A DNA stretch of 63,938 bases, counting the filler, from Reclinomonas americana ATCC 50394 (lineage: Eukaryota), in the NCBI GenBank assembly GCA_048213135.1. It is 8 parts of 4 records of this genome, joined end to end, with 100 filler letters (N's around TTAATTAATTAA, not from the genome) between each part and the next. Parts side by side here need not be neighbours in the genome. Positions count along the whole stretch, not along the records: positions 32,050 to 43,535 come from PS015325.1; 7 more parts are not named here. One strand, written 5' to 3'. The notes under the pieces were generated by a model. The model was not told where the DNA came from and ran no database searches. It was given only the letters and a program-made list of their open reading frames with translations. Made by a program: the position numbers and the translations under genes. Below are positions 33,499 to 63,938 of the stretch, piece after piece; within the stretch, counting starts at the first letter, position 1, and each line of letters starts with the position of its first letter.

Positions 33499-34598
33499 AT
33501 GGACTCACTGCTGGCCGCGCTGCAAGTCGAAGAACCCGCAGTATACGCGCGATTAACCACCAGCGCTCCATATGATCCACAGGTGCGACTCACTCAACTC
33601 TCTCTCTCTGTCTCTCTCTGTGACTCTCTGACAGCATGTGTGGCGCACAAGGCGTTGCGCGCACTGGCCAGAGAGCGACTCACCAGTGCAGAGCTGAGCA
33701 CACTGGGCGACCCCTCTGCTGTCAGCGACGATGCGATTGCCGATGCGCTGTTGGATCACAGGGCAGCGGTGGTGGCCGCCGAGCGCGCAGCTCAGCTGTG
33801 CACGCAGGAGTCACTCACATTCGAGATGGAAGAGGAGGAGGACGACGATGACGATGGGGAGGAGGAGTCGGAGTCAGAGTCGGATGCGAGCTCGGCGGTG
33901 GCGACGCCCGGTGCGCTGATGCACACGACGTCGTTTGAGGAGGAGCGCGCGGCGATTGCGGGGTTGACGTGGGACGAGGCAGCGAGGGCGATCAGGACGC
34001 GCATGTTCCCCGTCGATCCGAGACAGGAGGCGGAGAGGCAGGCGCGCGAGGCGGCGGCGGCTGCCGAGGTCGAGCATCTGTGCGAGTTGCGTTTGTCTCC
34101 ATTACACAACAGCAGCAACAGCCGCAGCATCCACGTAACTGATGCTTTGCTGTGCGCAGGCTGCAGCAGTGCCCGGGGCGACCGGATCTGCTGGTGCCGG
34201 AGGTGCGCGAGGGCGACTTGGAGATTGTGCGATCGGTCAAGGCGAGCAAGGTGCTGCTGTTTGAGGTGCTGGCGAGCTTTGAGCAGGCGCTGAAGAAGCA
34301 CAACTCGCGGGAGGCCAACACGGTGCTCTTTGATCGCATGCAGAATGTGGTGTTTGACAAGTTGCGTCCGAATGTCTCCTCACCGACCCTGCTCATTTTG
34401 TGCTCACACGTGCGCCGCAGTCTCGACGACCTGATGCCGCTGCTGTCGCCAATGGACATGCAAAAGTGGGCCGACACCCTGCGCAGCCACCAGGCCATGA
34501 AAGACGAGGATTACAGCTGCATGTGGGAGGCGGCGCGATTCATCCGCGTTCGACTCGGCCACGAGATCCTGTCCATTGTCGCCACCGCCTTCAAGTGA
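33499..34598 (+). CDS. Hypothetical helical protein with an acidic patch (4 exons)
   Basis: MDSLLAALQVEEP.. to ..IVATAFK-TGA; short GT-AG introns join the ORF pieces. No family recognised. Confidence 0.65.
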
Positions 34599-34953: not shown

Positions 34954-35911
34954 ATGCAAGGACAGGACCCGCAACAACAACAGCCAACCGGCTTCGTGCC
35001 CTTGTCACGACAAATCCCACAAATGCCAAGCGCGCCTCCCGCGCCCGCTGCTCTCATTGAGCGCCCAGCCGGTCCCTCGCCGCAGCTGTTTCATCGTCTA
35101 CAGCCGCCGCGATCACTGCAACAGCAGTCGCCGACACAACAGACCGACATGGCCGCCAACACACACGCAGATGACCCTTTGCCCTCACAGCAGCAACAAC
35201 AGCAACAGCAGGCAGTGTCGCGGCGACTGTTGCGCACACTGGTGCAAGGGCGGTTGCGATTACCACCACTGCCAGCAGCGCCACCACCGCCGCACATGAT
35301 GTCGGTCAACAACGAACGTGCAATGGGAGTGTTTGGCGACAGAGTGGTGCGTCCACCTGCCTATCCCTCTCCCTCTCTGTGTGTGATAGGTGTCTCACAT
35401 GGGGGGTGCCTGTGTGTATGCACAGACGCACATTGACGCTGATTTCGGCGGCAATGATGATGATGTGGATGCTGATGATGGACGACGAGTGGAACCGCGT
35501 GGATACATCGACGCGCCAAAGCACCCGCGTGCCATGTCGTTGGTTCGGAGGTTAGCAAACGCGCGGCTCTTCCACAATGTCAACACGCCAGTGGATGAGG
35601 TGCGTTGGTGGGTGAGTGGGGTGGGGAAACTAGACAAATCAGACTCGCTCACCTCCTCTCCGCTGCAGCTGGCGAGTCCCGCCATTGGTGACTTGAGCAA
35701 CGCGCAACGAATTCACCCTGTAAACGCCGATGCGCTGGTGGAGGTAGATGACAGCAAGCCGCAGCATTCGCCGTCGTCGTCGGCGTCGGTGGAGTCGGCT
35801 GTGTCGGTGCCGATTGCAGACTTGAGATTACGCAACGTTGGAGGAGGCGCCGAGCGCGCTGCAGCGCAAGTGACCAAGCGACAGCTGACAGTGCTGTGGA
35901 TTGCGGTGTCA
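34954..35911 (+). CDS. Q/P-rich N-terminal exons ending in the start of a hydrophobic helix (probable N-terminus of the fibre protein)
   Basis: MQGQDPQQQQ.. with two GT-AG introns, ending KRQLTVLWIAVS at the gap. Confidence 0.6.
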
Positions 35912-36355
35912 NNNNNNNNNNNNNNNNNNNNNNNNNNNNNNNNNNNNNNNNNNNNNNNNNNNNNNNNNNNNNNNNNNNNNNNNNNNNNNNNNNNNNNNNN
36001 NNNNNNNNNNNNNNNNNNNNNNNNNNNNNNNNNNNNNNNNNNNNNNNNNNNNNNNNNNNNNNNNNNNNNNNNNNNNNNNNNNNNNNNNNNNNNNNNNNNN
36101 NNNNNNNNNNNNNNNNNNNNNNNNNNNNNNNNNNNNNNNNNNNNNNNNNNNNNNNNNNNNNNNNNNNNNNNNNNNNNNNNNNNNNNNNNNNNNNNNNNNN
36201 NNNNNNNNNNNNNNNNNNNNNNNNNNNNNNNNNNNNNNNNNNNNNNNNNNNNNNNNNNNNNNNNNNNNNNNNNNNNNNNNNNNNNNNNNNNNNNNNNNNN
36301 NNNNNNNNNNNNNNNNNNNNNNNNNNNNNNNNNNNNNNNNNNNNNNNNNNNNNNN

Positions 36356-39300
36356 GACGGTGGGTTCATTGCAGGGAAGCTCAGTCAGCACGTTCGGTGT
36401 GATCAGCGGCGGCAGTGTTACGACTGTAGGCACGCTTGAGAGCAGTTCGGTCAGCACATTTGGTGTGATAAGCGGCGGGAGTGTGACGACGGTGGGCTCA
36501 TTACAGAGCGGCTCAGTCAGCACATTCGGTGTGATCAGCGGTGGGAGCGTGACGACAGTGGGCACGCTGGAGAGTGGCTCGGTCAGCACTTTTGGTGTGA
36601 TTAGCGGCGGCAGCGTGACGACGGTGGGCACATTGCAGGGCAGCTTAGTCAGCACATTCGGTGTGATCAGCGGCGGCAGTATGACGACGGTGGGTTCATT
36701 GCAGGGCAGCTCGGTCAGCACATTCGGCGTGATCAGCGGCGGCAGTGTGACGACAGTGGGTACGCTTGAGAGTGGCTCGGTCAGCACATTCGGTGTGATT
36801 AGCGGCGGCAGTGTGACGACGGTGGGTTCATTGCAGGGAGGCTCAGTCAGCACATTCGGTGTGATCAGCGGTGGCAGTGTTACGACGGTGGGCTCATTAC
36901 AGAGCGGCTCAGTCAGCACCTTCGGTGTGATTAGCGGCGGCAGTGTGACGACAGTGGGCTCATTACAGAGCGGCTCAGTCAGCACATTCGGTGTGATCAG
37001 TGGCGGCAGTGTGACGACGGTGGGTTCGTTGCAGGGCAGCTCAGTCAGCACATTCGGTGTGATCAGCGGCGGGAGTGTGACGACGGTGGGCTCATTACAG
37101 GGCAGCTCAGTCAGCACATTCGGTGTGATCAGCGGCGGCAGTGTGACGACAGTGGGCACATTGCAGGGCAGCTCAGTCAGCACATTTGGTGTAATCAGCG
37201 GCGGCAGTGTGACGACGGTAGGCACATTGCAGGGAAGCTCGGTCAGCACATTCGGTGTGATCAGCGGTGGCAGTGTGACGACGGTGGGCACGCTAGAGAG
37301 TGGCTCAGTCAGCACATTCGGTGTGATCAGTGGCGGCAGTGTTACTACGGTGGGCACGCTTGAGAGTGGCTCGGTCAGCACATTCGGTGTGATTAGCGGC
37401 GGCAGCGTGACGACAGTGGGCACATTGCAGGGCAGCTCAGTCAGCACATTTGGTGTGATCAGCGGCGGCAGTGTGACGACGGTGGGTTCGTTGCAGGGCA
37501 GCTCTGTCAGCACATTCGGTGTGATCAGCGGCGGTAGTGTGACGACAGTGGGCACACTGCAGGGCGGCTCAATCAGCACATTCGGTGTGATTAGCGGCGG
37601 CAGCGTGACGACAGTGGGCACGCTCGAGAGTGGCTCGGTCAGCACATTCGGTGTGATCAGTGGCGGCAGTGTGACGACTGTTGGCACGCTCGAGAGTGGC
37701 TCGGTCAGCACCTTTGGTGTGATCAGCGGCGGCAGTGTGACGACAGTGGGCACATTGCAGGGCAGCTCAGTCAGCACATTTGGTGTAATCAGTGGCGGCA
37801 GTGTGACGACTGTTGGCACGCTCGAGAGTGGGTCGGTCAGCACCTTTGGTGTGATCAGCGGCGGCAGTGTGACGACAGTGGGCACGCTTGAGAGTGGCTC
37901 GGTCAGCACGTTCGGCGTCATTAGCGGTGGCAGTGTTACTACGGTGGGCACTCTGGAGAGTGGCTCGGTCAGCACATTCGGTGTGATCAGTGGCGGCAGT
38001 GTGACGACAGTGGGCACGCTGGAGAGTGGCTCGGTCAGCACCTTTNNNNNNNNNNNNNNNNNNNNCGGTGAGCACATTCGGCGTGATCAGCGGCGGCAGC
38101 GTGACGACGGTGGGCACGCTGGAGAGCAGTTCGGTCAGCACATTCGGTGTGATCAGTGGCGGCAGTGTGACGACAGTGGGCACATTGCAGGGCAGCTCAG
38201 TCAGCACATTCGGTGTGATCAGCGGCGGCAGTGTGACGACGGTGGGTTCGTTGCAGGGCAGCTCTGTCAGCACATTCGGTGTGATCAGCGGCGGCAGTGT
38301 TACGACTGTAGGCACGCTTGAGAGCAGTTCGGTCAGCACATTTGGTGTGATAAGCGGCGGCAGTGTGACGACGGTGGGCACGCTTGAGAGTGGCTCGGTC
38401 AGCACGTTCGGCGTCATTAGCGGTGGCAGTGTTACTACGGTGGGCACTCTGGAGAGTGGCTCGGTCAGTACTTCAGGTCTTCTCGTTGCTGCGAACATCA
38501 CAACTGCGGGGTCTATTAGTGCAGCAGTTATCGTGACGAATACCCTTGGCATTGCAAGTAACATCAGTGCTGTAGGCATCGTCAGTGGCGGCAGTCTGAC
38601 TACAAGTGGATTACTTTCTGCAGGCAGTATAACGAGTTCAATTCTCGCTGTTGATGGTCTTATCAGCGGCGGCAGTGTGACGACTGTTGGCACACTGGAG
38701 AGCAGCTCTGTCAGCACATTCGGTGTGATTAGCGGTGGCAGTGTGACGACAGTGGGCTCATTACAGAGCGGCTCAGTCAGCACCTTCGGTGTGATTAGCG
38801 GCGGCAGTGTGACGACAGTGGGCTCATTACAGAGCGGCTCAGTCAGCACATTCGGTGTGATCAGCGGCGGCAGCGTGACGACAGTGGGTTCATTGGAGAG
38901 CGGCTCAGTCAGCACCTTCGGTGTGATTAGCGGCGGCAGCGTGACGACAGTGGGCTCATTACAGAGCGGCTCAGTCAGCACATTCGGTGTGATTAGCGGC
39001 GGCAGTGTGACGACAGTGGGCTCATTACAGAGCGGCTCTGTCAGCACATTCGGCGTGATCAGCGGCGGCAGCGTGACGACGGTGGGCACATTGCAGGGCA
39101 GTTCGGTCAGCACATTCGGTGTGATCAGCGGCGGCAGCGTGACGACAGTGGGTTCATTGGAGAGCGGCTCAGTCAGCACCTTCGGTGTGATTAGCGGCGG
39201 CAGCGTGACGACAGTGGGCTCATTACAGAGCGGCTCAGTCAGCACATTCGGCGTGATTAGCGGCGGCAGTGTGACGACGGTGGGTTCGTTGCAGGGCAGC

Positions 39301-40800
39301 TCAGTCAGCACATTCGGTGTGATCAGCGGCGGCAGCGTGACGACAGTGGGTTTATTGGAGAGCGGCTCAGTCAGCACGTTTGGTGTGATTAGCGGTGGCA
39401 GTGTGACGACAGTGGGTTCTTTGCAGAGCGGCTCAGTCAGCACATTCGGTGTGATCAGCGGCGGTAGTGTGACGACAGTGGGCACACTGCAGGGCGGCTC
39501 AATCGGTACATTCGGTGTGATCAGCGGCGGCAGCGTGACGACAGTGGGTTCATTGGAGAGCGGCTCAGTCAGCACCTTCGGTGTGATTAGCGGCGGCAGT
39601 GTGACGACAGTGGGTTCGTTGCAGGGCAGCTCAGTCAGCACGTTCGGTGTGATCAGCGGCGGCAGTGTGACGACTGTGGGCACGCTAGAGAGCGGCTCAG
39701 TCAGCACATTCGGTGTGATCAGCGGCGGCAGCGTGACAACAGTGGGCTCATTACAGAGCGGCTCAGTCAGCACGTTCGGTGTGATTAGCGGTGGCAGTGT
39801 GACGACAGTGGGTTCTTTGCAGAGCGGCTCAGTCAGCACATTCGGTGTGATCAGCGGCGGCAGCGTGACGACTGTTGGCACGCTCGAGAGCGGCTCGGTC
39901 AGCACCTTCGGTGTGATCAGCGGCGGCAGCGTGACGACAGTGGGTTCATTGGAGAGCGGCTCAGTCAGCACCTTCGGTGTGATTAGCGGCGGCAGTGTGA
40001 CGACAGTGGGCTCATTACAGAGCGGCTCAGTCAGCACATTCGGTGTGATTAGCGGCGGCAGCGTGACGACTGTTGGCACATTGCAGAGCGGCTCAGTCAG
40101 CACCTTCGGTGTGATCAGCGGTGGCAGTGTGACGACTGTTGGCACGCTTGAGAGTGGCTCAGTCAGCACCTTCGGTGTGATCAGCGGTGGCAGCGTGACG
40201 ACGGTGGGTTCATTGCAGGGAAGCTCGGTCAGCACATTCGGTGTGATCAGCGGCGGCAGTGTGACGACAGTGGGCACGCTAGAGAGCAGTTCGGTCAGCA
40301 CATTCGGCGTGATCAGCGGCGGCAGTGTGACGACGGTGGGTTCATTGCAGGGAAGCTCGGTCAGCACATTCGGTGTGATCAGCGGCGGCAGCGTGACGAC
40401 GGTGGGTTCATTGCAGGGAAGCTCGGTCAGCACATTCGGTGTGATCAGCGGCGGCAGCGTGACGACGGTGGGCACATTGCAGAGCGGCTCAGTCAGCACA
40501 TTCGGTGTGATCAGCGGCGGCNNNNNNNNNNNNNNNNNNNNGACAGTGGGTTCGCTTCGCGGCAGTTCTATAAGCTCGTCTGGTGTGATCAGTGGCGGCA
40601 GTGTGACGACGGCGGGCACTCTTGAGAGTGGCTCGGTGAGCTCTGGCGGCTTGATCAGTGGCGGCAGTGTGACAACCGTTGGGTCGCTGCGCGGTGCGTC
40701 CGTTAGTTCGTCTGGTGTCATTAGCGGCGGCAGCGTCACTACGGTGGGTTCGCTGCAAGGCGTCTCTGTGAGCACTGGCGGCCTCGTGGCGGGTGGCAGT
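36356..40800 (+). repeat. Coding 66-bp tandem array (~60 units, one divergent insert at ~38470-38660)
   Basis: Unit visible directly. Variation is mostly at third codon positions plus S/T, Q/E and G/S swaps. Confidence 0.95.
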
Positions 40801-42198
40801 CTGAGCACAGCCGGTAGCCTTGTCGTCGGCGCCAGTGTCTCGTTACCGCTGACACAGGGTGCGCTTCTTCTTGGCAACTCATCTGGTCGATCCGCTGAGT
40901 TGGCTGTGGGTTCTACCGGTCAGGTGTTGACAGCGTCGGGCGCAACGGCGCTGTGGTCAACACCTGGAAGCACGCTCGTGTGGAGCTCAGTGAGCGGCAG
41001 CTACACCGCCTCCTCCTCCGACTATGTTCTTCTCGTTCGACCGGCCTCCTGTTTCCCAGCGATCAGCACGACGATTACGGTGACGCTGCCGACAGCAGCG
41101 GGTGTGTCTGGCAAAGCGTACATGGTTGTCAACACGTGCATCGGTCAGAATGCTGGCGGTCTGTTCAACGTGTTGGTGACGTCGGCAGTGGCATCCCAGT
41201 TGAAACGTGGACTGAACGAGAGCGAAGTTCGGCCCTTCTACGCCTTGCAAGTAATGAGCGACGGATCGACCTGGGTCCCCATCTTTGCTGCGCCATCGCC
41301 ACCGCGCACCGATTGTCCAACCATTACGTGGACGGGACGTGCCACCTCGCAGCCTTGGACGTCGGTGGCCACAAGTCAGGACGGGACTAAGGCTCTCGCC
41401 AGTGTCTCTGGAGGCACATTGTACATGTCATTGGACTCGGGCGTGTCATGGGCTCAGGCAAATGCTGGAGCCGGTAACAGGAGTTATACCGATGTGGCCA
41501 TGAATTCTGACGGATCGGTGATGGCTGCCGTGGTGAACGGTGGCAACATTTGGGTGACGACAAATAGTGGTGCAACATGGACCGCTCGCAACACCGGCTC
41601 CAATCAGCCTTACACAGCAATCTCTATGAGTGCAGACGGTACTCGAATGCTGGCCGTTGGTAACGCCTCAAACGTGTTCCAATCGACTGACTCTGGCACC
41701 ACCTGGACAACTGCTCCTGGATCGTCGTCGCGTGCCTACATGGACATTGCATGCAATTCGGATTGCTCCAAGTTCATCACCGTGGTCACCAGCGGGCGTA
41801 TTTTCACCGGCGTCTTCAACTCATCGATGACGCAACGTACCGGGCAAGATAAGGACTGGACTGCGTGCGCGTCGAGTGCGGATGGTGTGCGCCTCTTTGC
41901 CTCGATCGACGACAGCAACATCTACTTCTCGAGAGACTCGGGCGCCACCTGGGAGCAGACGCCGACCATGCTCGACAACAAGAACTGGACGGGAATAGCG
42001 AGCAGCGCAGACGGCATGCGCGTGATCGCGTGCAACAAGTCTGTGCCTGCCGTGTACGGCTCCAATGACGGCGGTCAGACGTGGCTGGTGGAATTCGGAC
42101 CTACCGGCAACGATGTAGAGGCGGTCGCGCTCAGCGCCTCCGGCGGCCGTGGCTACGCCGCCGTCAACAACTCGCTGATCCTCGCCACCACGTGCTGA
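36356..42198 (+). CDS. Giant repetitive fibre-like protein: 22-aa repeats + tail-fibre-like module + Asp-box (BNR) beta-propeller
   Basis: Open on + between small gaps. (GSVTTVG[ST]L[QE][SG]xSVSTFGVISG)n, then GALLLGNSSG..LAVGSTGQVLTASG..W, YTASSSDYVLLV..ITVTLPTA..GKAYMVVN..SDGSTW, and about seven blades, most with SxDxGxTW-type Asp boxes. Confidence 0.85.
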
Positions 42199-42285
42199 GA
42201 ACTGGAGAGGAGCCAGGCTGTCGCAAAAGGTATGTTGAGTTTGGCTACAGGTTAAGGCAATGGCATTCTCACCTTTACCACTTCC

Positions 42286-42528
42286 GACCCAGGCATTGCA
42301 TAGCTGTGGTTGCGTCTGACCGTAGACACCGCGACGTCAGGAATGAAGTGTTATCGTCGTTTCAGTTGCTCTTTAAGTCGGCGCACCTCAACTTATCAAA
42401 TCGCATTCTCATCGTCACCACTACAGACCCAGGCATTGCATAGCTGTGGTTGCGTCTGACCGTAGACACCGCGACGTCAGGAATGAAGTGTTATCGTCGT
42501 TTCAGTTGCTCAAAGTCAGCGCACCTCC
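42286..42528. repeat. Direct repeat, ~100 bp x2, period 140
   Basis: GACCCAGGCATTGCATAGCTGTGG..TTTCAGTTGCTC is identical at 42286 and 42426. Confidence 0.9.
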
Positions 42529-42593
42529 ATGCAGTGTTGACAAACTTCCGATCAACTAAACATTGATATCTCGTCTGCTGAAGAGAGAGCACC

Positions 42594-42893
42594 ATGCGTG
42601 CACTTTTCCTTGCGCTTTTTCTTGCCCTTCTCTGCACCACAGCAGCAGCAGCAACAGCAGCATCCTCGTCGTCGCTTACACAAGGCGGTGTGCTGAGACT
42701 CGTCAATGGACACGAGGCGATTGCGGAGGGATACTGTGTGCAGTTGCCCGACAGTCCGTGGTGCCCGGCGCCCGATGATTACATTCCTCCACTGTTGCCA
42801 GAGGGTGAGTGTGTGAGAGAGGGAGAGTGCGTGAGAGAGGAGGGAAGGGAGTGAGAGAAGGGAAGAAGGGGAAGGGAGTGAGTGAGTGAGTGA

Positions 42894-42926
<33 letters not shown>

Positions 42927-43446
42927 TGTGTGTGTGTGAGTGAGTGTGAGTGAGCGTGAGTGTGAGTGTGAGTGTGAGTGAGTGAGCGTGAGTGTGAGTG
43001 TGAGTGAGTGAGTGAGTGAGAGTATAAGTGACTTTAGGTGTCGCCTTAGGTGACGACTTGGGTGTCGCCTAAGGTGACTTTTGAGATGACACAGTCAGAG
43101 TTGACTTGCATTACACATTGTGTTCTCTCACTCTCTCACTCTTGTGCTTTCTCTCTCTTTTTTTTTGTGTGTGTGTGTTGACACAGATGACCAAGTGGAA
43201 GGTGCGTTGTTTGCTCAATGATTCCTCCGTCGCGCATTTCACACACAAGTCTCTCACCTTTGCTTTCTCACATAGTGTATTACATGCAGGCGAGTGTGCA
43301 TTTGGTGCTGTTTTCGTTGTGTTTTTGTCTCGCTGACTTACTGTTGATTGAACAGGCGCCGCTGATGGAGTCGGTGTTGTCGGACTTGTTGGGCGATGTG
43401 GACTTGTATCACACGGGCATTGGGTTCCGCAGTCTGTTGAGTGCGC

Positions 43447-43505
<59 letters not shown>

Positions 43506-45104
43506 GGAGAGAGAGAGAGAGAGAGAGAGAAGAAGNNNNNNNNNNNNNNNNNNNNNNNNNNNNNNNNNNNNNNNNNNNNTTAATTAATTAANNNNNNNNN
43601 NNNNNNNNNNNNNNNNNNNNNNNNNNNNNNNNNNNCAGAGAGAGAGTGTGTGTGTGTGTGTGTGTGGAGAGGGACAAGAGAGAGAAGAAACGGAGAGGAG
43701 GAGGAAGGGAGAGAAAGGAGGGGGAGGGAGGGAGAAGCAGTAGTGTGAGCAAGTTGAAGATGAGTGAATCCTTGCAGAGACAGACAGAGAGAGAGAGAGA
43801 GGAAGGATAGAGAGAGGTCTGTCTTGTGTGCCTCGCAAGCACTGATTGCGAGAGTGTGAGAAGGGAGGAAGGCACAACACTCAATCATCTCCGCCCCTCG
43901 ACAGCGCGTTCATATGGGCTGTTGTTTTCTCGTCCCTCTCGCACCTGTCTTTTTGCTATTTGTCTCCCGTCTGTCATTCACTCTCCCTTTCCTAATTTCC
44001 CCCTTCTCCTGCTGCGCTCTCTCCTTCCTCCATCCATTCTCCGCCCCCTTACCCTCTTTCCTCCCTTCCCCTTCCCCTTCTCGCCCCTTGCAGCAAGACC
44101 GGCCAGAACGCCACCGTCGAGCTCGACGCCGTGTACAGCATCCAAAACGCCACCTTCCCGTTCGTGTACGCCAAACCCAACGGAGATCACGACGTGGTGT
44201 ACTGCGATCGCGGTCAGTCTCCCTCGCACTTCTTCCCCTGCATTCTCACTCTCACTCGCACCCACGCCGCTTCTCCCCCCACAGCTGGCATTTGCGCCAT
44301 GAATTCGCTCTCGCACCGGTACTGGCAACTGCGCCTGAAGATTGCCACGGTGTCCGGCTCGGCGTACAATCGCTTCATGAGGGAGTGGCTGCCGATGGCT
44401 CGTGCGCAACCCGATCTGTTCACCAATTACAGGTGACTTGTTGTTTTCATTCTTCCTCAATTGTTCTGTGCACGTCGCTCACCCGTGTGTGCTTCTGGCA
44501 GGTTGTGGAATGTGTTTGGCGAGTGGCCGACGGACTGGCAGATGAAGTCCGTCACATGCGCCGATTTTGCGTGGGCCGCCATGGGTGCGCTGGAGGACTA
44601 CGGCATGGAGATTTCGACGCCGCTCCCGTGCCTCCACGACTACGGTGTGCTCTATGGCTCCTACGATCCGACGCCAGCCAACTTGACGGATCCCACCGTC
44701 GCAGCCGAGTTGCTGGAGTATTTTGACAGCACCGAGGTGCCTTGTTCTTCACGTAGCTTTATTTCAAGCGCGTGCCTCACACCCTTCGCTTGTCGTGCGC
44801 GCAGTTGCACGACGTGCATGCCGTTGATTTTGTGGAGCACCTGATCCACTTTGTGGTGAGCGACAAGTGGATTCCGGTCGACGGCGAGCTGCGTCGCGTC
44901 GTCTCCAAGAAGCCCTTTGTGTATTACCACTGGTACGCTGCTCTCGCTTTTGCAATAATTCCTCTCCTGCTCACTTGCTTATGCGCCTCGCGCAGGGCTG
45001 TGGCTCCCATTTGCTCGTACGAGGTGTGGCTGGCCGACCGTTGCGGTCACCCGCTGGCATCTGCGCCGCCGCCGCGCCTCGTCGATGCCACCGCCGATCA
45101 ATAG
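42594..45104 (+). CDS. CLN5: CLN5-like lysosomal protein
   Basis: Signal peptide; spliced DDQVEVYYMQAPLMESVLSDLLGDVDLYHTGIGFRSLKTGQNATVE..NATFP..ATVSGSAYN..WNV..SVTCADF matches human [53 protein letters not shown] as recalled. Confidence 0.88.
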
Positions 45105-46595: not shown

Positions 46596-49500
46596 TCATA
46601 GCCGCCTGCGCGTAGCAAAGTGAGTTTTTCCACGCAGTACGCAGAGAGAAAGACGAAATACACAAGCACTTACAATGTACGCATTGCGTTTCTCCTGCAG
46701 CTCCGGTGCCATTCGCGCCGACGTCTGTTTCCACGTCTGCTGAATGGCGGCCATATCGTCGGGCGTGACGGGCCACTTGCGACGACCCTCGTCGTTTTGC
46801 AGCACAATCATCAGCGTCGTGTGCGTGCACATGACGAATTGGTCGCCGTGTGAAACGGCATGAGCGGCGCCCGAGCGGAACACGTGCTCGTCCGGACCGA
46901 GTGCCACCAGGAAGCGCATGAAGCGACTCTCCTTCAGGCGAGCCACGCCGGGGGTGGGCGGATCGTCCCAGTTGGGCACAAACACCACAAAGGACAGCGC
47001 TGCGGCATCCGGGTGCTCGAGCAAGCGCTCGACCAAGCGCGCCGACGAGTCAATCACCTCCTCCGAGTACGGTGGGTGCATCTGGAAGGAGCCCTGCCGC
47101 GGCTCCAGCTGAAAGAAGGAGCCACAGGAACCGAAAGCCGCGTCCGTGTCCGGAAACGCGGAGCCGTAGTTCGGCAAGTAGCAGTTCAGGGGCGACGCAA
47201 AGCACTCAAACTGCACGTCGAGTCGCTCACGCAGCGCCACCCACACCTCGGTGGGAATCGCCTGCTGCAGCGTGGTGCCCTCGAAGCGATCCGTGCCAAA
47301 GTACGTCTGGTAGCGTCGCAAGAGGAGCCACAGATCCACCTCGAAGCGATCGTGGTGCATGGCGTTGCCGGGTGGGGCGTGAAGCGCGTGCAGGCGCTTC
47401 AGCTTCGGGACGAACTCGGCGTTGATGGGCATTTGGTCGCCGCGGGTCGAGACGAATACCATGCCGTCGGTGGGCGCTGGGGTGATTGAGATGGTCACCG
47501 CTGTGGGAGGGGGAAGGGGAAGGGGGGTGAGAAGGGGAAGGGGAAGAAAGGGGAAGGGGGGAAGGGGGGAAGGGGAAGGAGGGAAGGGGGTATGGTGGGA
47601 GGGTAAAGGGGTATGGGGGAATGGTGGGAGACGGAAGGGAGAAGACGGAAAATGGGAAGACGGAAGGGGAAGAAGAAAGGGAAAGACGAAGGGAATGTAA
47701 AGGGGGAGGGGTACGGAGAAGACGGAAGGGGAAGGACGCAAGAGGAAGAGAAGGGAGAAGGAAAGGGAGAAGGAGCACGCGGGAAAGGAAAGGAGAACGA
47801 TAAGGGGAGATGGAAAGGGGAGAAGACGGATCTCCGACTCTACTCTCTGCTGCATCTCACTTCCTTCTATCCGCGGCTCTGAAATCCCTGCCGCCTCTCC
47901 ATCCCAATCCCTTCTCCCCCTGTCACCACTCACCAGGTGGCTCCACCACGGCATCGCTCTGCAGCAGTCGCTTCCGCAAACTACTGAGCTTGGAGGCCAC
48001 CTCGTGCGACATGTCATTCAGCTTGGCGCACACCAGCTCGGCCTGCTGCGTCACCAACCCCTGAAACACGGGGCCAACTTGTCTCCGCAAATCGGTGCAC
48101 TTTTCAACGTACTCGGCCACCGGCTTGTCGCTGTGGAGCTTGGCAAAATCGTTGCAGTCGTTGGCTTCTTGTTGCAGATGCCGCAACAATTTAGCGTCGC
48201 CAACACCTTGCTGCGCACGCCGATCAATCAATGAGTGGATGCTAAACAAGCACACACACACATAGGCGCCGGGGAGGGTGCACGCAACGTCAAGGAAATA
48301 CCGCGTGAAGTCGCGAGTGGCGGTGCACAACGCAAAGAGCGCCGCACGACCCTGTCGCGACGTGGTCGGGTATCGCCGCCGTGCCGGCACGTCGGAAAGC
48401 AACTCGCGCAGCATCGGTGTCGACACCATGGGGTCGACACGGGCGGGAAACAGCGGATCTAACCGCGGTCCATCCGGGTGCAGCATGCGCTCGGCGAGCC
48501 AGCGATTGACGGACTCCTTGGGTGCCGGAATGCCCACCTCTTGCTGGCACATGTCGCCAAACGTCTCGCGCATGGTGGCCATTTCCTTGGCGCGGTGGAT
48601 CTCGAGCTCCACGCGGGCTGCGGGGCGGGGTGAGATAATACAGAAGAAAAAAGTGGCGGTTCTCTCTTGTCGATTCACCTGCATCGCTCATTGTCCTCTC
48701 CCTCTCCGCGTCCTTCCACGCCGCCAGCACCGTGGGTGCAGACACCCGTACCACCAGGCTCACTGCTGCGGAGGTCGATGAAGTCGCCGCATTGCTGGAC
48801 GACTGACCGGCGGCATCGGCAGACGCGGCCGACGATAGTGATTCCACCTCCATGGGGCCCTCTTGCGACGCGGAGGCGGAGATGACCACGGGTGCGTTGG
48901 CCAGCACAATAAAGGTGGGTTGGACGGTGAAGTCGTACATGCCGGGCTGTGGCGGGCGGGAGAAGGGAGAAGGGGGGAAGGGGGGGAAGGGTGAGGGGTA
49001 AGGAGAGAGAAGGAAAGACACAAGAGAGGAAAAAACAAGAGATGCCTGCTTGAAATCAGATCAGACCAGCTGTCTAACGCGCACGGACTTCCCTCACTTG
49101 GTGCCTTATCGAAAAGAAGAATGCAACAGAAGGGGGAGTGTGAGGATGAATTAGAGAGCAGGGGAGAGAGTCAGCAAAGGCTGGGAGAAGGCTGCGAACC
49201 TCTTGCTGTTCAGGAGAGGCTGAGGAAGTGAGCGATAGAGATGGTTGAGCGAAGGTCATGAGAGAGAGACGTGGAAGTGAACGCATCTCGCGAGCGACTG
49301 CTTGTCTCTGTCACACTGAAGCAAAATCGAGAGAAGGCAGCAGCACGAGAGAGAGAGAGAGAGAGAGAGAAGTAAAGAACAAAGCTAGAGGAGGTGACNN
49401 NNNNNNNNNNNNNNNNNNNNNNNNNNNNNNNNNNNNNNNNNNTTAATTAATTAANNNNNNNNNNNNNNNNNNNNNNNNNNNNNNNNNNNNNNNNNNNNCC

Positions 49501-54228: not shown

Positions 54229-54371
54229 TGCACTCTCCGGTGCTTTCTCTCTCAACGGTTGTGGATCTGTANNNNNNNNNNNNNNNNNNNNNNNNNNNNN
54301 NNNNNNNNNNNNNNNTTAATTAATTAANNNNNNNNNNNNNNNNNNNNNNNNNNNNNNNNNNNNNNNNNNNN

Positions 54372-62180: not shown

Positions 62181-62428
62181 GTGAGACGCAATTTGTGCTG
62201 CATGATCGTCAGACTATGTCTCTCTCTCTCTCTCTNNNNNNNNNNNNNNNNNNNNNNNNNNNNNNNNNNNNNNNNNNNNTTAATTAATTAANNNNNNNNN
62301 NNNNNNNNNNNNNNNNNNNNNNNNNNNNNNNNNNNGTACGTACGACGTACGTACGTACGTACGTACGACGTACGTACGTACGTACGTACGTACGAGACGA
62401 CGTAGACGACGTACGTACGAGAGTAGAG

Positions 62429-62795: not shown

Positions 62796-63884
62796 TCACA
62801 GACACAGGCTGCTGTCTGCGAAACAGAGATGCACAACAACCTCGGCCTCCTCCACCAGAAAGCAGCGCATTACAATCTCCACCAAACAACGCGGATCTGG
62901 ATCGTCTTCCCCTTCCCCCTCGATAGGCATCTCCTGCACCGCGCGCATCGCCGACTGTGCGCATTCGAGCTCCTGTCGAGCCAATCCACCTGGTGTGGAC
63001 CACACGCGCACTGTCTTGTCGTTAGACCCACTTACGATGAGTTGCCCATCGGGGGAGACGGCGACAGAGTTCACTTGCCCAGTGTGCCCTACCAACCGCC
63101 GCACTTCCTCGCCACTCGCCACGGACAACATTCGCACATTGTTGTCCAGGCTGCCAATCACCACGTGACGACCATCAGGAGTGATGGCGACAGAGTACAC
63201 GTCGTCATCATGTCCATCAATCCGTCGCACTTCCTCGCCGCTCTCAACGCACAACACTCGAACCATCCCGCCCCAGCTCCCGCTCACCACGTGCCGACCG
63301 TTGGGAGTGACTGCGACAGAGGTCACAATTTCCAAGTGTCGGTCCCACCGTCGCAGTTGTTCTCCACTCGCCAGTGACCACATGCACACTGTCTTGTCCC
63401 CACTCCCACTGACAACATGCTGCCCGTCGGAGGTGACGGCGACAGAGTACACGGCGCGAGTGTGCCCCTCCAGCAATTGCACTGTCTCGCCACTCGCCAG
63501 CGACCACACTCGCACACGCATTTCATTGCTCCCACTCACAATGAACTGTCCGTCGGGAGTGACCGCAACACACAGCACTGCCGCGGTGTGTCCCTTCAAC
63601 TGCTGTACTTCCTCTCCGTTCACCAGCGACCACACACGCACAGTACCATCAGCCGCTCCACTCACAATGTGCTCACTGTTGGGAGTGACGGCGACCGCAT
63701 ACACCCAACCTGTGTGTCCCTGCAAGTGCAGCACTTGCTCTCCAATCGCGGCAGACCACACTCGCACGCTGTAGTCACTCGCAGACACCACATGTTGACC
63801 AGTGGGAGTGAATGCGACGCAATGGACATTGCTAGGGTGTCCGTGCAGGCGTCGAGAAGGGAGAGATGGAGGCGCAACGGACAT
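62796..63884 (-). CDS. Intronless 7-repeat WD40 protein
   Basis: Seven regular GH..V..VA(V/I)(T/S)PDG..(I/V)VSGS.D.TVRVW repeats plus a short tail; 362 aa. Confidence 0.9.
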   Translation of the reverse strand: MSVAPPSLPSRRLHGHPSNVHCVAFTPTGQHVVSASDYSVRVWSAAIGEQVLHLQGHTGWVYAVAVTPNSEHIVSGAADGTVRVWSLVNGEEVQQLKGHTAAVLCVAVTPDGQFIVSGSNEMRVRVWSLASGETVQLLEGHTRAVYSVAVTSDGQHVVSGSGDKTVCMWSLASGEQLRRWDRHLEIVTSVAVTPNGRHVVSGSWGGMVRVLCVESGEEVRRIDGHDDDVYSVAITPDGRHVVIGSLDNNVRMLSVASGEEVRRLVGHTGQVNSVAVSPDGQLIVSGSNDKTVRVWSTPGGLARQELECAQSAMRAVQEMPIEGEGEDDPDPRCLVEIVMRCFLVEEAEVVVHLCFADSSLCL

Positions 63885-63938
63885 GATGTGTGAGTGAGAG
63901 AGAGAGAGAGAGGGTGAGGGAGAGGAGTGGAGGAGGGA

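Follow-up and report, generated by a model that had tools for sequence, protein, structure and literature searches.

The window (the whole stretch of DNA that was analysed, 63,938 nucleotides from Reclinomonas americana ATCC 50394) contains a stop-free frame on the plus strand that occupies 36356-38045, 38066-40521 and 40542-42198 and closes with a stop codon at 42196-42198. Apparent frame shifts in this long frame are located only at two 20-N gaps (38046-38065 and 40522-40541). The coding span, 36356-42198, measures 5,843 bp and has 1,932 visible codons and no intron; the protein is no shorter than these 1,932 visible residues (2,202 counting the upstream exons). The first-pass annotation had described more than 5.8 kb of intron-free coding sequence, which was confirmed, the N gaps being the sole breaks in a single plus-strand frame. 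Its statement that neighbouring genes carry an intron every few hundred bp was overstated, as coding stretches of 1.0-1.7 kb without interruption occur in host genes of the window (11619-13316, 46599-48017, 20784-21857 and 62799-63938). The features of the locus are as follows.

34954..35346, plus strand: putative exon 1, read from the sequence; ATG, 131 codons, Gln/Pro-rich, GT at 35347
35347..35425, plus strand: putative intron 1, 79 nt, GTGCGT...CAG; its removal restores the frame
35426..35599, plus strand: putative exon 2, 58 codons, acidic
35600..35668, plus strand: putative intron 2, 69 nt, GTGCGT...pyrimidine tract...CAG
35669..35911, plus strand: putative exon 3, with KRQLTVLWIAVS at its end abutting the 444-N gap; possible start of a membrane helix
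35912..36355, no strand: 444-N scaffold gap, covering the junction between upstream exons and repeat array
36356..38045, plus strand: shaft segment 1, 563 aa, 25.6 units of 22 residues
38046..38065, no strand: 20-N gap within the array, hiding the true unit number
38066..40521, plus strand: shaft segment 2, 818 aa, containing the divergent stretch 38464-38661
40522..40541, no strand: 20-N gap within the array
40542..40851, plus strand: last shaft units, degenerating, within the predicted trimer interface
40852..40965, plus strand: 'GQVLT' module, single copy, TQGALLLGNSSGRSAELAVGSTGQVLTASGATALW, found by profile match and BLASTP
40966..41322, plus strand: 'knob', a beta-rich domain of ~115 residues and no known family, YTASSSDYVLLV...SDGSTW
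41323..42195, plus strand: BNR/Asp-box beta-propeller, 291 aa, five clear Asp boxes, followed by the stop codon
42199..43535, no strand: 3' flank, microsatellite-rich, in one gap-free contig with the C-terminal coding part

The repeat region comprises 1,480 aa, or ~67 units, with a period of 66 bp (25.2 and 37.5 copies by Tandem Repeats Finder). Set out in 22-residue rows, the shaft unit reads ISGGSVTTVG(T/S)L(E/Q)(S/G)(G/S)SVSTFGV. Two frames of the minus strand are likewise open (725 and 1,050 aa). The 57 canonical units show 48 different DNA sequences yet encode only 13 different protein sequences, and their diversity by codon position is 0.114/0.003/0.294; despite the open minus-strand frames, this pattern identifies the plus frame as coding. 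The stretch 38464-38661, formerly taken for a phage-like 'NISAVGIVSGGSLTTSGLLSA insert', consists of six divergent half-units of the shaft's own repeat, each of 11 residues, and its foreign origin was therefore rejected.

The neighbouring genes encode THO complex subunit 1, PCIF1, a ubiquitin-conjugating enzyme, Frag1 and WD40 proteins. A 490-bp contig from a second public data set covers 40774-41261 with 97.5% identity and 12 differences. Of the ten differences listed, seven are synonymous and the other three fall in two codons; those within the GQVLT module are all synonymous. Codon use in the C-terminal part correlates with that of host genes at r = 0.79 (host genes among themselves, 0.42-0.86), and GC3 is 0.68 compared with 0.71 in host genes. 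These observations support a gene that is real, under selection, free of introns and part of a eukaryotic scaffold. The edges of the fibre contig, a 444-N gap upstream and an artificial N44-TTAATTAATTAA-N44 joiner downstream, together with the bacterial or viral nature of the fibre's relatives, would fit a bacterial or viral contig misassembled into eukaryotic sequence. Gap-free sequence from 40542 to 43535, however, joins the end of the coding region to 1.3 kb of flank that is rich in (GAGT)n, (GA)n and (GT)n microsatellites, as is the rest of the window. Codon use and GC3 also fit the host, and the propeller carries five Cys and six N-x-S/T sites, where 47 homologues have medians of 1 and 2. 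We regard contamination or misassembly as extremely improbable.

Upstream of the 444-N gap, the sequence agrees with the first-pass annotation: an ATG at 34954 is followed by Q/P-rich exons, the last of which ends in KRQLTVLWIAVS. Intron 1 has to be removed, since the frame of 34954 stops at 35436 and that of 35426 continues; splicing of intron 2 cannot be read from the frame, its 69 nt being a multiple of three. A Pfam search with these exons returned no family. We infer that exon 1 belongs to the fibre gene and that the protein is plausibly anchored through an upstream type-II helix. Alternatively, the repeat-propeller frame may be a separate secreted protein, with its start and signal peptide inside the 444-N gap, and the Q/P-rich exons a different transcript. 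Scaffold order alone links the two parts, the upstream exons have no family match and their codon use correlates more weakly with host genes (0.45-0.56, over few codons). On the other hand, the upstream frame stays open to the gap edge, where a Lys-Arg pair is followed by LTVLWIAVS, a signal-anchor-like arrangement of which only nine hydrophobic residues are visible; the preceding gene ends at 34598 and the next ATG is that at 34954. We consider two genes possible but the less probable arrangement, a judgement that concerns the N-terminus only, is compatible with any other reading of the locus and stands outside the sum of their probabilities.

Ten shaft units (38662-39321) were modelled alone and gave an all-beta solenoid with pLDDT 94 and pTM 0.87; the input was a single idealised repeat sequence, and AlphaFold2 can be over-confident on such sequences. 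A regular coil-length repeat and a stacked all-beta model are both present, so at the level of predicted fold the shaft qualifies as a parallel beta-helix. The model resembles curli CsgA (VIA Z 18.8, rmsd 8.5), a beta-helical antifreeze protein (VIA Z 14.1, rmsd 3.0 over 190 residues) and autotransporters, filamentous haemagglutinin and phage tailspikes (VIA Z 12-14). Foldseek with the same model gave no PDB or BFVD match at E <= 0.001. Sequence searches found no relative of the shaft, viral or other: it is absent from IMG/VR, and query P0003 matched no Pfam family at E <= 10, pectate-lyase-type beta-helix families included. Each 22-residue unit is predicted to form one coil of a stacked parallel beta-helix. 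A beta-helix rises 0.48 nm per coil, and ~67 or more units would make a rigid rod of ~32 nm or more. The predicted fold is that of the solved single-chain rods curli CsgA (8c50) and Marinomonas antifreeze adhesin region IV (3p4g), and equally of autotransporter passengers, filamentous haemagglutinin and phage tailspikes (Z 12-19), with no sequence relationship to any of them. Compared with the solved rods, the length and regularity of the shaft are extreme, with 67 or more near-identical coils.

Both motifs quoted in the first-pass annotation as resembling phage or giant-virus fibres were located, and their fates differ. The first belongs to a ~45-residue module of phage tail-fibre and virion proteins, with the pattern ...G-D-L-x-x-G...R-L-x-[IV]-G-x-x-G-Q-V-L-T...G-x-P-x-W. 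A profile built from 26 copies in one viral contig matched it with 29 bits (E 1.8e-8 among the 585 ORFs of the window, the runner-up having 0.53), and its identity to viral and metagenome copies is 43-54% over 37-40 residues (43-48% by BLASTP). The motif occurs in 42 viral loci, and a single protein can have as many as 13 copies in tandem. Among 34 motif-bearing ORFs, 13 match tail or virion-structural PHROGs, six match PHROGs of unknown function only and 15 have no match; none matches any other named PHROG functional category. The ~45-residue module is shared with GQVLT-repeat virion and tail proteins (phrog_23837, 'virion structural protein'; loci L013, L017 and L034) and with metagenome protein P0154, which also has a pectate-lyase-like domain. 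The link to phrog_23837 passes via P0154 and L013, no direct profile match being listed for P0001 or P0002 at E <= 1. Unlike the tandem arrays of the virion and tail proteins, the window has one copy, and different domains come after it. The second motif (YTASSSDYVLLV...SDGSTW) had no detectable relative in any search, contrary to the earlier suggestion. It lies in the knob, whose monomer model failed to fold (pLDDT 35). Pfam gave no match for the linker and no family for the GQVLT module or the knob.

In the trimer modelling proposed by the first-pass annotation, a predicted homotrimer of the shaft end and linker reached an ipSAE of 0.72, the best control reaching 0.02. Contact agreement between runs was at least 92% and partner pLDDT at least 76. 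In calibration the mark was reached by 21/30 proteins solved as one-chain pairs and 0/23 single chains (on eukaryotes, 17/29 and 0/30), sets of two copies whereas our model has three, and the pass may reflect memory of solved fibres. Predicted contacts place the GQVLT module (40852..40965) at the core. The rod end and linker are accordingly modelled as a homotrimer around this module. A confident monomeric solenoid and a trimer would be compatible only if three helices lie side by side, tailspike fashion.

The Asp-box propeller was borne out by five S-x-D-x-G-x-x-W boxes and a Pfam match to Sortilin-Vps10 (PF15902; 47 bits against a cut-off of 33, E 2.2e-12). The boxes lie at residues 262, 305, 347, 429 and 473 of P0001, spaced by 42-44 residues or double that; with 291 residues in all, this spacing suggests seven blades. 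PSII_BNR missed its cut-off (17.4, with 27 required), and in the PDB the closest sequence match to the propeller is Ycf48 (E 7e-4). Sortilin combines a propeller of ten blades with 10CC modules after it. Assignment as a Sortilin/Vps10 receptor was rejected, as the domain has only 291 residues, the best stretch spans no more than profile positions 2-87 of 446 and the stop codon comes directly after the domain. The window's propeller has Asp-box blades in common with Sortilin/Vps10 and Ycf48 but seven suggested blades and no 10CC, and nothing in the comparison ties it to plastid or sorting. The catalytic motif of GH33 is F/Y-R-I-P. An exo-alpha-sialidase (GH33) was rejected on the sole criterion that R-[IVL]-P is absent from P0001.

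Relatives of the propeller are abundant, with 22,847 clusters at E <= 0.001 and full-length matches of 34-45% identity in many bacterial phyla and in viruses. They account for 185 of 400 candidate stretches in viral contigs and 478 of 571 in prokaryote genomes of many phyla. Nine of 54 viral propeller proteins match tail or virion PHROGs, and 8 of 76 viral propeller loci are named as giant-virus bins. Of 29 clusters, the four that carry organism names are all bacterial; eukaryotic relatives could be among the other 25. The propeller's best sequence relatives, at 36-45% identity, are giant bacterial multi-propeller surface proteins named 'photosystem II stability/assembly factor-like' (COG4447-type names in IMG), from MAGs of Desulfobacterales, Opitutae, Patescibacteria and Pseudomonadota. 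These have tandem propellers (up to 34 matched stretches) together with domains of bacterial adhesins such as PKD, Lcl_C, DUF4214 and BclA_C, and lack both the linker and the shaft repeat. Clear tail-fibre matches among the viral propeller proteins number four (L049, L055, L063 and L114, uncultivated contigs in IMG/VR). Their propellers are 33-41% identical to that of the window over the full length, they match tail-fibre PHROGs down to E 1e-150, the L055 gene lies downstream of a tape-measure gene, and as here a fibrous shaft precedes the propeller. They differ in that their shafts are collagen-like or other tail-fibre repeats without the 22-residue unit or the GQVLT module, their propeller precedes a distal tail-fibre domain rather than forming the C-terminus, and they are encoded in virion modules rather than a eukaryotic chromosome. 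By sequence similarity, the propeller belongs to a family that is widespread among giant surface proteins of bacteria and also occurs in some tail fibres of phages.

Horizontal acquisition of a phage fibre, as first proposed, thus stands in part. The GQVLT module, the tail-fibre relatives of the propeller and the trimer model speak for it; the knob, the shaft, the supposed insert and the combination of motif with propeller do not. Modules shared with clear tail fibres are present (the GQVLT module and the propeller's relatives). By its own sequence the protein was rejected as a phage tail fibre, with no PHROG, Pfam (linker and shaft) or GenBank phage match. Encoding in a virion tail module with a baseplate-docking N-terminal domain was also rejected: the flanks are eukaryotic and the visible N-terminal candidate, the upstream segment, is Q/P-rich and family-less, the array's true N-terminus lying in the 444-N gap. 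We judge it unlikely that a complete phage or giant-virus receptor-binding fibre entered the genome in one piece and later became joined to an N-terminus and anchor of the host. Such a capture would account for the motif in tail-fibre and virion proteins, propeller relatives inside clear tail fibres downstream of tape-measure genes, the giant-virus bins, the trimer score, the 5.8 kb without an intron and, as a lead only, the linker's language-model neighbours, which are Uroviricota clusters (0.93). Motif and propeller were, however, never found together in one viral or bacterial locus among those examined: a related propeller is missing from all 937 ORFs of the 42 motif loci, the GQVLT motif from all 1,966 ORFs of the 76 propeller loci and the linker from the best 150 propeller matches. 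The window's protein has no PHROG match at E <= 0.01 (only phrog_15809, of unknown function, at E 0.096), tblastn of linker, propeller and shaft against 50,697 GenBank phage records gave no match, and IMG/VR lacks the shaft. Since the propeller is equally close to many bacterial phyla and to viruses, it does not show that a whole phage fibre was captured.

In the star-like tree of propellers the closest neighbour is 1.3 substitutions per site away, and transfer is therefore judged from distribution rather than nested phylogeny. An old or lineage-born eukaryotic surface protein, with a propeller of Sortilin/Vps10-type stock and a motif that is convergent or untraceably short, would need no transfer. 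The top Pfam family is eukaryotic, codon use is host-like, the closest donor is at most 45% identical, and those of the searched collections that can be named are prokaryote-only or viral by construction. We nevertheless think this origin very unlikely: full-length propeller matches abound in bacteria and viruses whereas the Pfam match covers blades only, all four named clusters are bacterial, and the motif match is specific within the window.

On balance we favour, as reasonably probable, a single resident and functional gene of the eukaryote, coding for a chimeric surface fibre or adhesin assembled from prokaryote/virus-type modules. Its product has, in order, ~67 or more 22-residue units whose protein sequence is strongly conserved, one GQVLT module, a ~115-residue beta-rich domain and the C-terminal propeller. 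The C-terminal modules probably reached it through an old transfer out of the prokaryote/virus gene pool, the shaft presumably being a lineage-specific expansion. The protein is probably a cell-surface stalk for sticking to something; it could hold a non-catalytic and probably glycan-binding propeller far from the cell, and might attach to bacteria, substrate or matrix. A bolder version, which we rate as quite unlikely, is that a bacterivorous eukaryote took over the hardware with which phages recognise bacteria, setting a trimeric tip (GQVLT module, knob and Asp-box propeller) on a home-grown, membrane-anchored beta-helix rod of more than 30 nm and catching or sensing bacteria by phage-type receptor binding. 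Bacterial adhesins and phage receptor-binding proteins are typically built as a beta-helical rod with a binding-domain tip. Here an adhesin-type rod of this kind is predicted in a eukaryotic chromosome, under purifying selection and with host-matching codon use. If placed at the cell surface, it would mean that a eukaryote has reused prokaryote/virus-type adhesion modules, and would provide a tractable candidate for the means by which cells of this kind bind to bacteria or substrate. With its predicted fold, the shaft would also be among the most regular natural beta-solenoid arrays for structural work.

The fibre gene is read from the sequence as a plus-strand frame free of stops, in which a repetitive shaft is followed by a short motif ('GQVLT'), a beta-rich knob and a C-terminal propeller; motif and knob together are referred to as the linker.

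36356-38045, 38066-40521 and 40542-42198, + strand: stop-free frame of the fibre gene
Directly before the motif, + strand: four degenerating shaft units
After these units (40852-40965), + strand: the motif, TQGALLLGNSSGRSAELAVGSTGQVLTASGATALW
After the motif (40966-41322), + strand: beta-rich knob of about 115 residues, YTASSSDYVLLV...SDGSTW
After the knob (41323-42195), + strand: propeller region of 291 residues with five S-x-D-x-G-x-x-W boxes

In total 1,932 codons of this frame are visible. The apparent frame changes coincide exactly with two 20-N gaps and are therefore assembly artefacts. Tandem Repeats Finder gives the shaft a period of 66 bp (25.2 and 37.5 copies). The repeat region comprises 1,480 residues, or about 67 units; set in 22-residue rows the unit reads ISGGSVTTVG(T/S)L(E/Q)(S/G)(G/S)SVSTFGV and is itself made of two 11-residue halves. 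What the first-pass annotation took for an insert (38464-38661) is a run of six divergent half-units of 11 residues in the same register as the shaft. The 57 canonical units exist in 48 DNA versions as against 13 protein versions, and their diversity at the three codon positions (0.114/0.003/0.294) bears the mark of purifying selection acting on the + frame. The repeat also opens two long minus-strand frames (35909-38086, 725 codons; 37767-40919, 1,050 codons); since the codon-position diversity marks the + frame, these are by-products of the repeat and not genes. Neighbouring genes had been described as having an intron every few hundred bp, which is overstated: the window contains host coding stretches 1.0-1.7 kb long, and the long single-exon stretches of THO complex subunit 1 (20784-21857, + strand, E 4.6e-56) and PCIF1 (46599-48017, - strand, E 1.4e-54) show that exons above 1 kb are normal for this genome. 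The 5.8 kb of the fibre gene is nonetheless the longest intron-free stretch by far.

Three agreeing lines of evidence identify the fibre gene as a real gene, and it is long resident and under selection. Judged from its sequence the window is eukaryotic; its six-frame ORFs include matches to THO complex subunit 1, PCIF1, ubiquitin-conjugating enzyme, Frag1/DRAM, DUSP, TIG, NHL and WD40 families. Contamination as the source of the gene is very unlikely, because codon use in the C-terminal part correlates with that of host genes at r = 0.79 (0.42-0.86 for host genes among themselves), GC3 is 0.68 against 0.71 in host genes, and the final coding segment forms one gap-free stretch with 1.3 kb of microsatellite-rich flank. 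A contig of the linker region was found in three runs of one public sample, as about 490 bp covering ~40774-41261 in two of them and as 214 bp in the third. The longer contig (490 bp) is 97.5% identical to the window (12 differences); among the 10 differences listed, seven are synonymous third-position changes and three fall within two adjacent codons, and the motif has synonymous changes only. Its limits are the repeat at one end and 41261 at the other, and an allele, a paralogue or a sister strain could account for it. The same three runs gave zero cover of the gene beyond 40773-41261. No RNA run was among the public sequencing runs listed, and all 23 rows contain at most 0.08 of the sampled words.

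The window consists of contigs strung together in an order set by scaffolding. Its artificial joiners are identical, each consisting of 44 N, TTAATTAATTAA and a further 44 N, where TTAATTAATTAA stops every one of the six frames; most joins have (GA)n or (GT)n microsatellites beside them. The joiners and the features upstream of the fibre array are as follows.

19531-19630, 25898-25997, 31950-32049, 43536-43635, 49399-49498, 54272-54371 and 62236-62335: seven artificial joiners in the window
ATG at 34954, + strand: start of a Gln/Pro-rich frame
35347-35425 and 35600-35668, + strand: two plausible GT...AG introns, read from the sequence

Splicing both introns would carry the Gln/Pro-rich frame to KRQLTVLWIAVS, which borders a 444-N gap (35912-36355). 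Only their order in the scaffold and nine visible hydrophobic residues speak for the proposed fusion of these exons to the fibre, with a type-II anchor.

The shaft belongs to no Pfam, PHROG or NCBIfam family, and no relatives were found in GenBank phages, IMG/VR, metagenome contigs or the best propeller hits. A PDB sequence match to a 22-residue leucine-rich repeat (E 1.3e-7) was set aside as a periodicity artefact, the alignment accuracy being 0.28. Language-model neighbours of the shaft are a weak mix (0.90, 152 shared features). Ten units modelled alone gave an all-beta fold with pLDDT 94 and pTM 0.87, values that may be over-confident for idealised repeats. Foldseek returned nothing for this model at E <= 0.001 in the PDB or BFVD; an exhaustive structural search aligned the whole model to single-chain beta-solenoids, including curli CsgA (Z 18.8, rmsd 8.5), a beta-helical module of an antifreeze adhesin (Z 14.1, rmsd 3.0 across 190 residues) and, at Z 12-14, autotransporter passengers, filamentous haemagglutinin and many phage tailspikes. 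We read the model as one coil per 22 residues. A beta-helix rises 0.48 nm per coil, so the rod is predicted to be about 32 nm long or more.

The linker was searched against 5.8 billion proteins of near, longer and shorter lengths, giving only two weak matches, both through the motif. These are 834-residue proteins with five tandem motif modules followed by a pectate-lyase-like domain, and their motif copies match phrog_23837, 'virion structural protein'. The architecture of these metagenome proteins (P0154 and P0155) is odd, an N-terminal CxxC region resembling a DnaJ-type zinc finger preceding the five modules and the pectate-lyase-like beta-helix. Scanned for the motif pattern, IMG/VR yielded 220 matches, of which 47 were confirmed, at 42 loci. 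The genomic contexts are tail modules, and proteins carry the motif module singly or as tandem arrays, the highest count of significant copies being 13, in a protein of 1,065 residues. One 87.6-kb IMG/VR contig (L013:3167-8531) has two viral genes side by side, of 1,065 and 692 residues, built mostly from modules in tandem, 13 significant copies in the first and 5 in the second. No Pfam family covers the module, which merits one. Among 34 non-redundant motif-bearing ORFs, 13 match tail-fibre, minor-tail or virion-structural PHROGs, six match families of unknown function only and 15 match nothing; no other named functional category appears. An independent profile, built from 26 copies all taken from one viral contig, picked out the motif among the window's 585 ORFs (29 bits, E 1.8e-8; next best 0.53); the match is short, and against a whole database its score would be marginal. 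The same profile matched only the two motif proteins among 179 collected proteins and had zero matches among 1,966 ORFs of propeller loci. The first-pass annotation of this first motif as phage-type was thus right.

The same cannot be said of the second quoted motif, the knob, which has no detectable relative. It matched no family, nothing in GenBank phages by tblastn, nothing in a word index of 5.8 billion proteins at any length class and, with phmmer, none of 937 ORFs of motif loci; a profile of the phage knob type at loci L017 and L003 did not find the window. A 14.9-bit match to a 131-residue viral ORF looks compositional. The BLASTP alignments with L003 and L034 reach beyond the motif but are anchored by it, and were discounted as knob evidence. 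For the linker as a whole, the language-model neighbours are Uroviricota clusters of small size (0.93), a lead and not a test. As a monomer the linker gave no confident fold (pLDDT 35). Three copies of 40711-41322 (last coils, motif and knob) co-folded with a homotrimer score of 0.72 against 0.02 for the best control, contact agreement of at least 92% and partner pLDDT of at least 76; the tightest predicted contacts lie within the motif. The mark was reached by 21 of 30 one-chain pairs and 0 of 23 single-chain proteins (17 of 29 and 0 of 30 for eukaryotes), a calibration made with two copies, and the pass may reflect memory of solved fibres. The suggested trimer modelling supports, without proving, that the shaft-tip junction is an obligate trimer, like tailspikes with three beta-helices side by side.

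The propeller scores above the Pfam cut-off for Sortilin-Vps10, and its best PDB sequence match is Ycf48; the sialidase R-I-P motif is absent from the protein. Exhaustive searching at E <= 0.001 gave 22,847 clusters, led by giant multi-propeller proteins at 36-45% identity. Organism names were present on four of 29 clusters looked up, all bacterial (Desulfobacterales, Opitutae, Patescibacteria and Pseudomonadota), and in prokaryote genomes 478 of 571 scanned candidates were confirmed, spread over many phyla. A profile-guided IMG/VR scan confirmed 185 of 400 candidates at 76 loci. Nine of 54 viral propeller proteins examined match tail or virion PHROGs, with four clear tail-fibre matches (L049, L055, L063 and L114); at L055 a tape-measure gene lies upstream. 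Eight of the 76 loci (L058, L072, L079, L083, L094, L109, L110 and L116) are metagenome bins named as giant viruses and hold full-length relatives at 33-39% identity; the name is a bin label only, and these may be binned bacterial DNA. The propeller had zero matches in GenBank phages, and single-protein scans with the C-terminal 517 residues found no close relatives in IMG/VR or metagenome contigs. In a tree of 48 full-length domains the branches radiate in a star shape, viral and other sequences are interleaved and no donor is supported; the nearest propeller is at least 1.3 substitutions per site away. The window's propeller has five cysteines and six N-x-S/T sites against medians of one and two in 47 homologues, a weak hint of adaptation to the secretory pathway.

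The shaft-motif-knob-propeller combination is unique among everything examined, and full-text literature searches turned up no description of a comparable protein. A term search in the main text of two papers on gene transfer in choanoflagellates (PMC4046809 and PMC7971027) finds none of the words BNR, sialidase, phage and propeller. That a phage fibre was captured whole, as first proposed, is possible but unsupported: none of the 937 motif-locus ORFs has a related propeller, the motif occurs in 0 of 1,966 propeller-locus ORFs, and neither linker nor shaft is present in the best 150 propeller hits. Vertical descent of the protein is possible, because most propeller relatives lack an organism name and the identifiable collections searched are limited to prokaryotes or viruses. 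The protein is best read as a chimeric surface fibre of a eukaryote, in which the rod would be a lineage-specific beta-helix and the tip would have been put together from modules of the prokaryote/virus pool. Elsewhere in the window, ORF pieces at 1551-2072 and 5538-7757 (+ strand) match the IPT/TIG domain and NHL or teneurin-NHL repeats, and possibly belong to another large extracellular receptor gene with domains of bacterial-like type.
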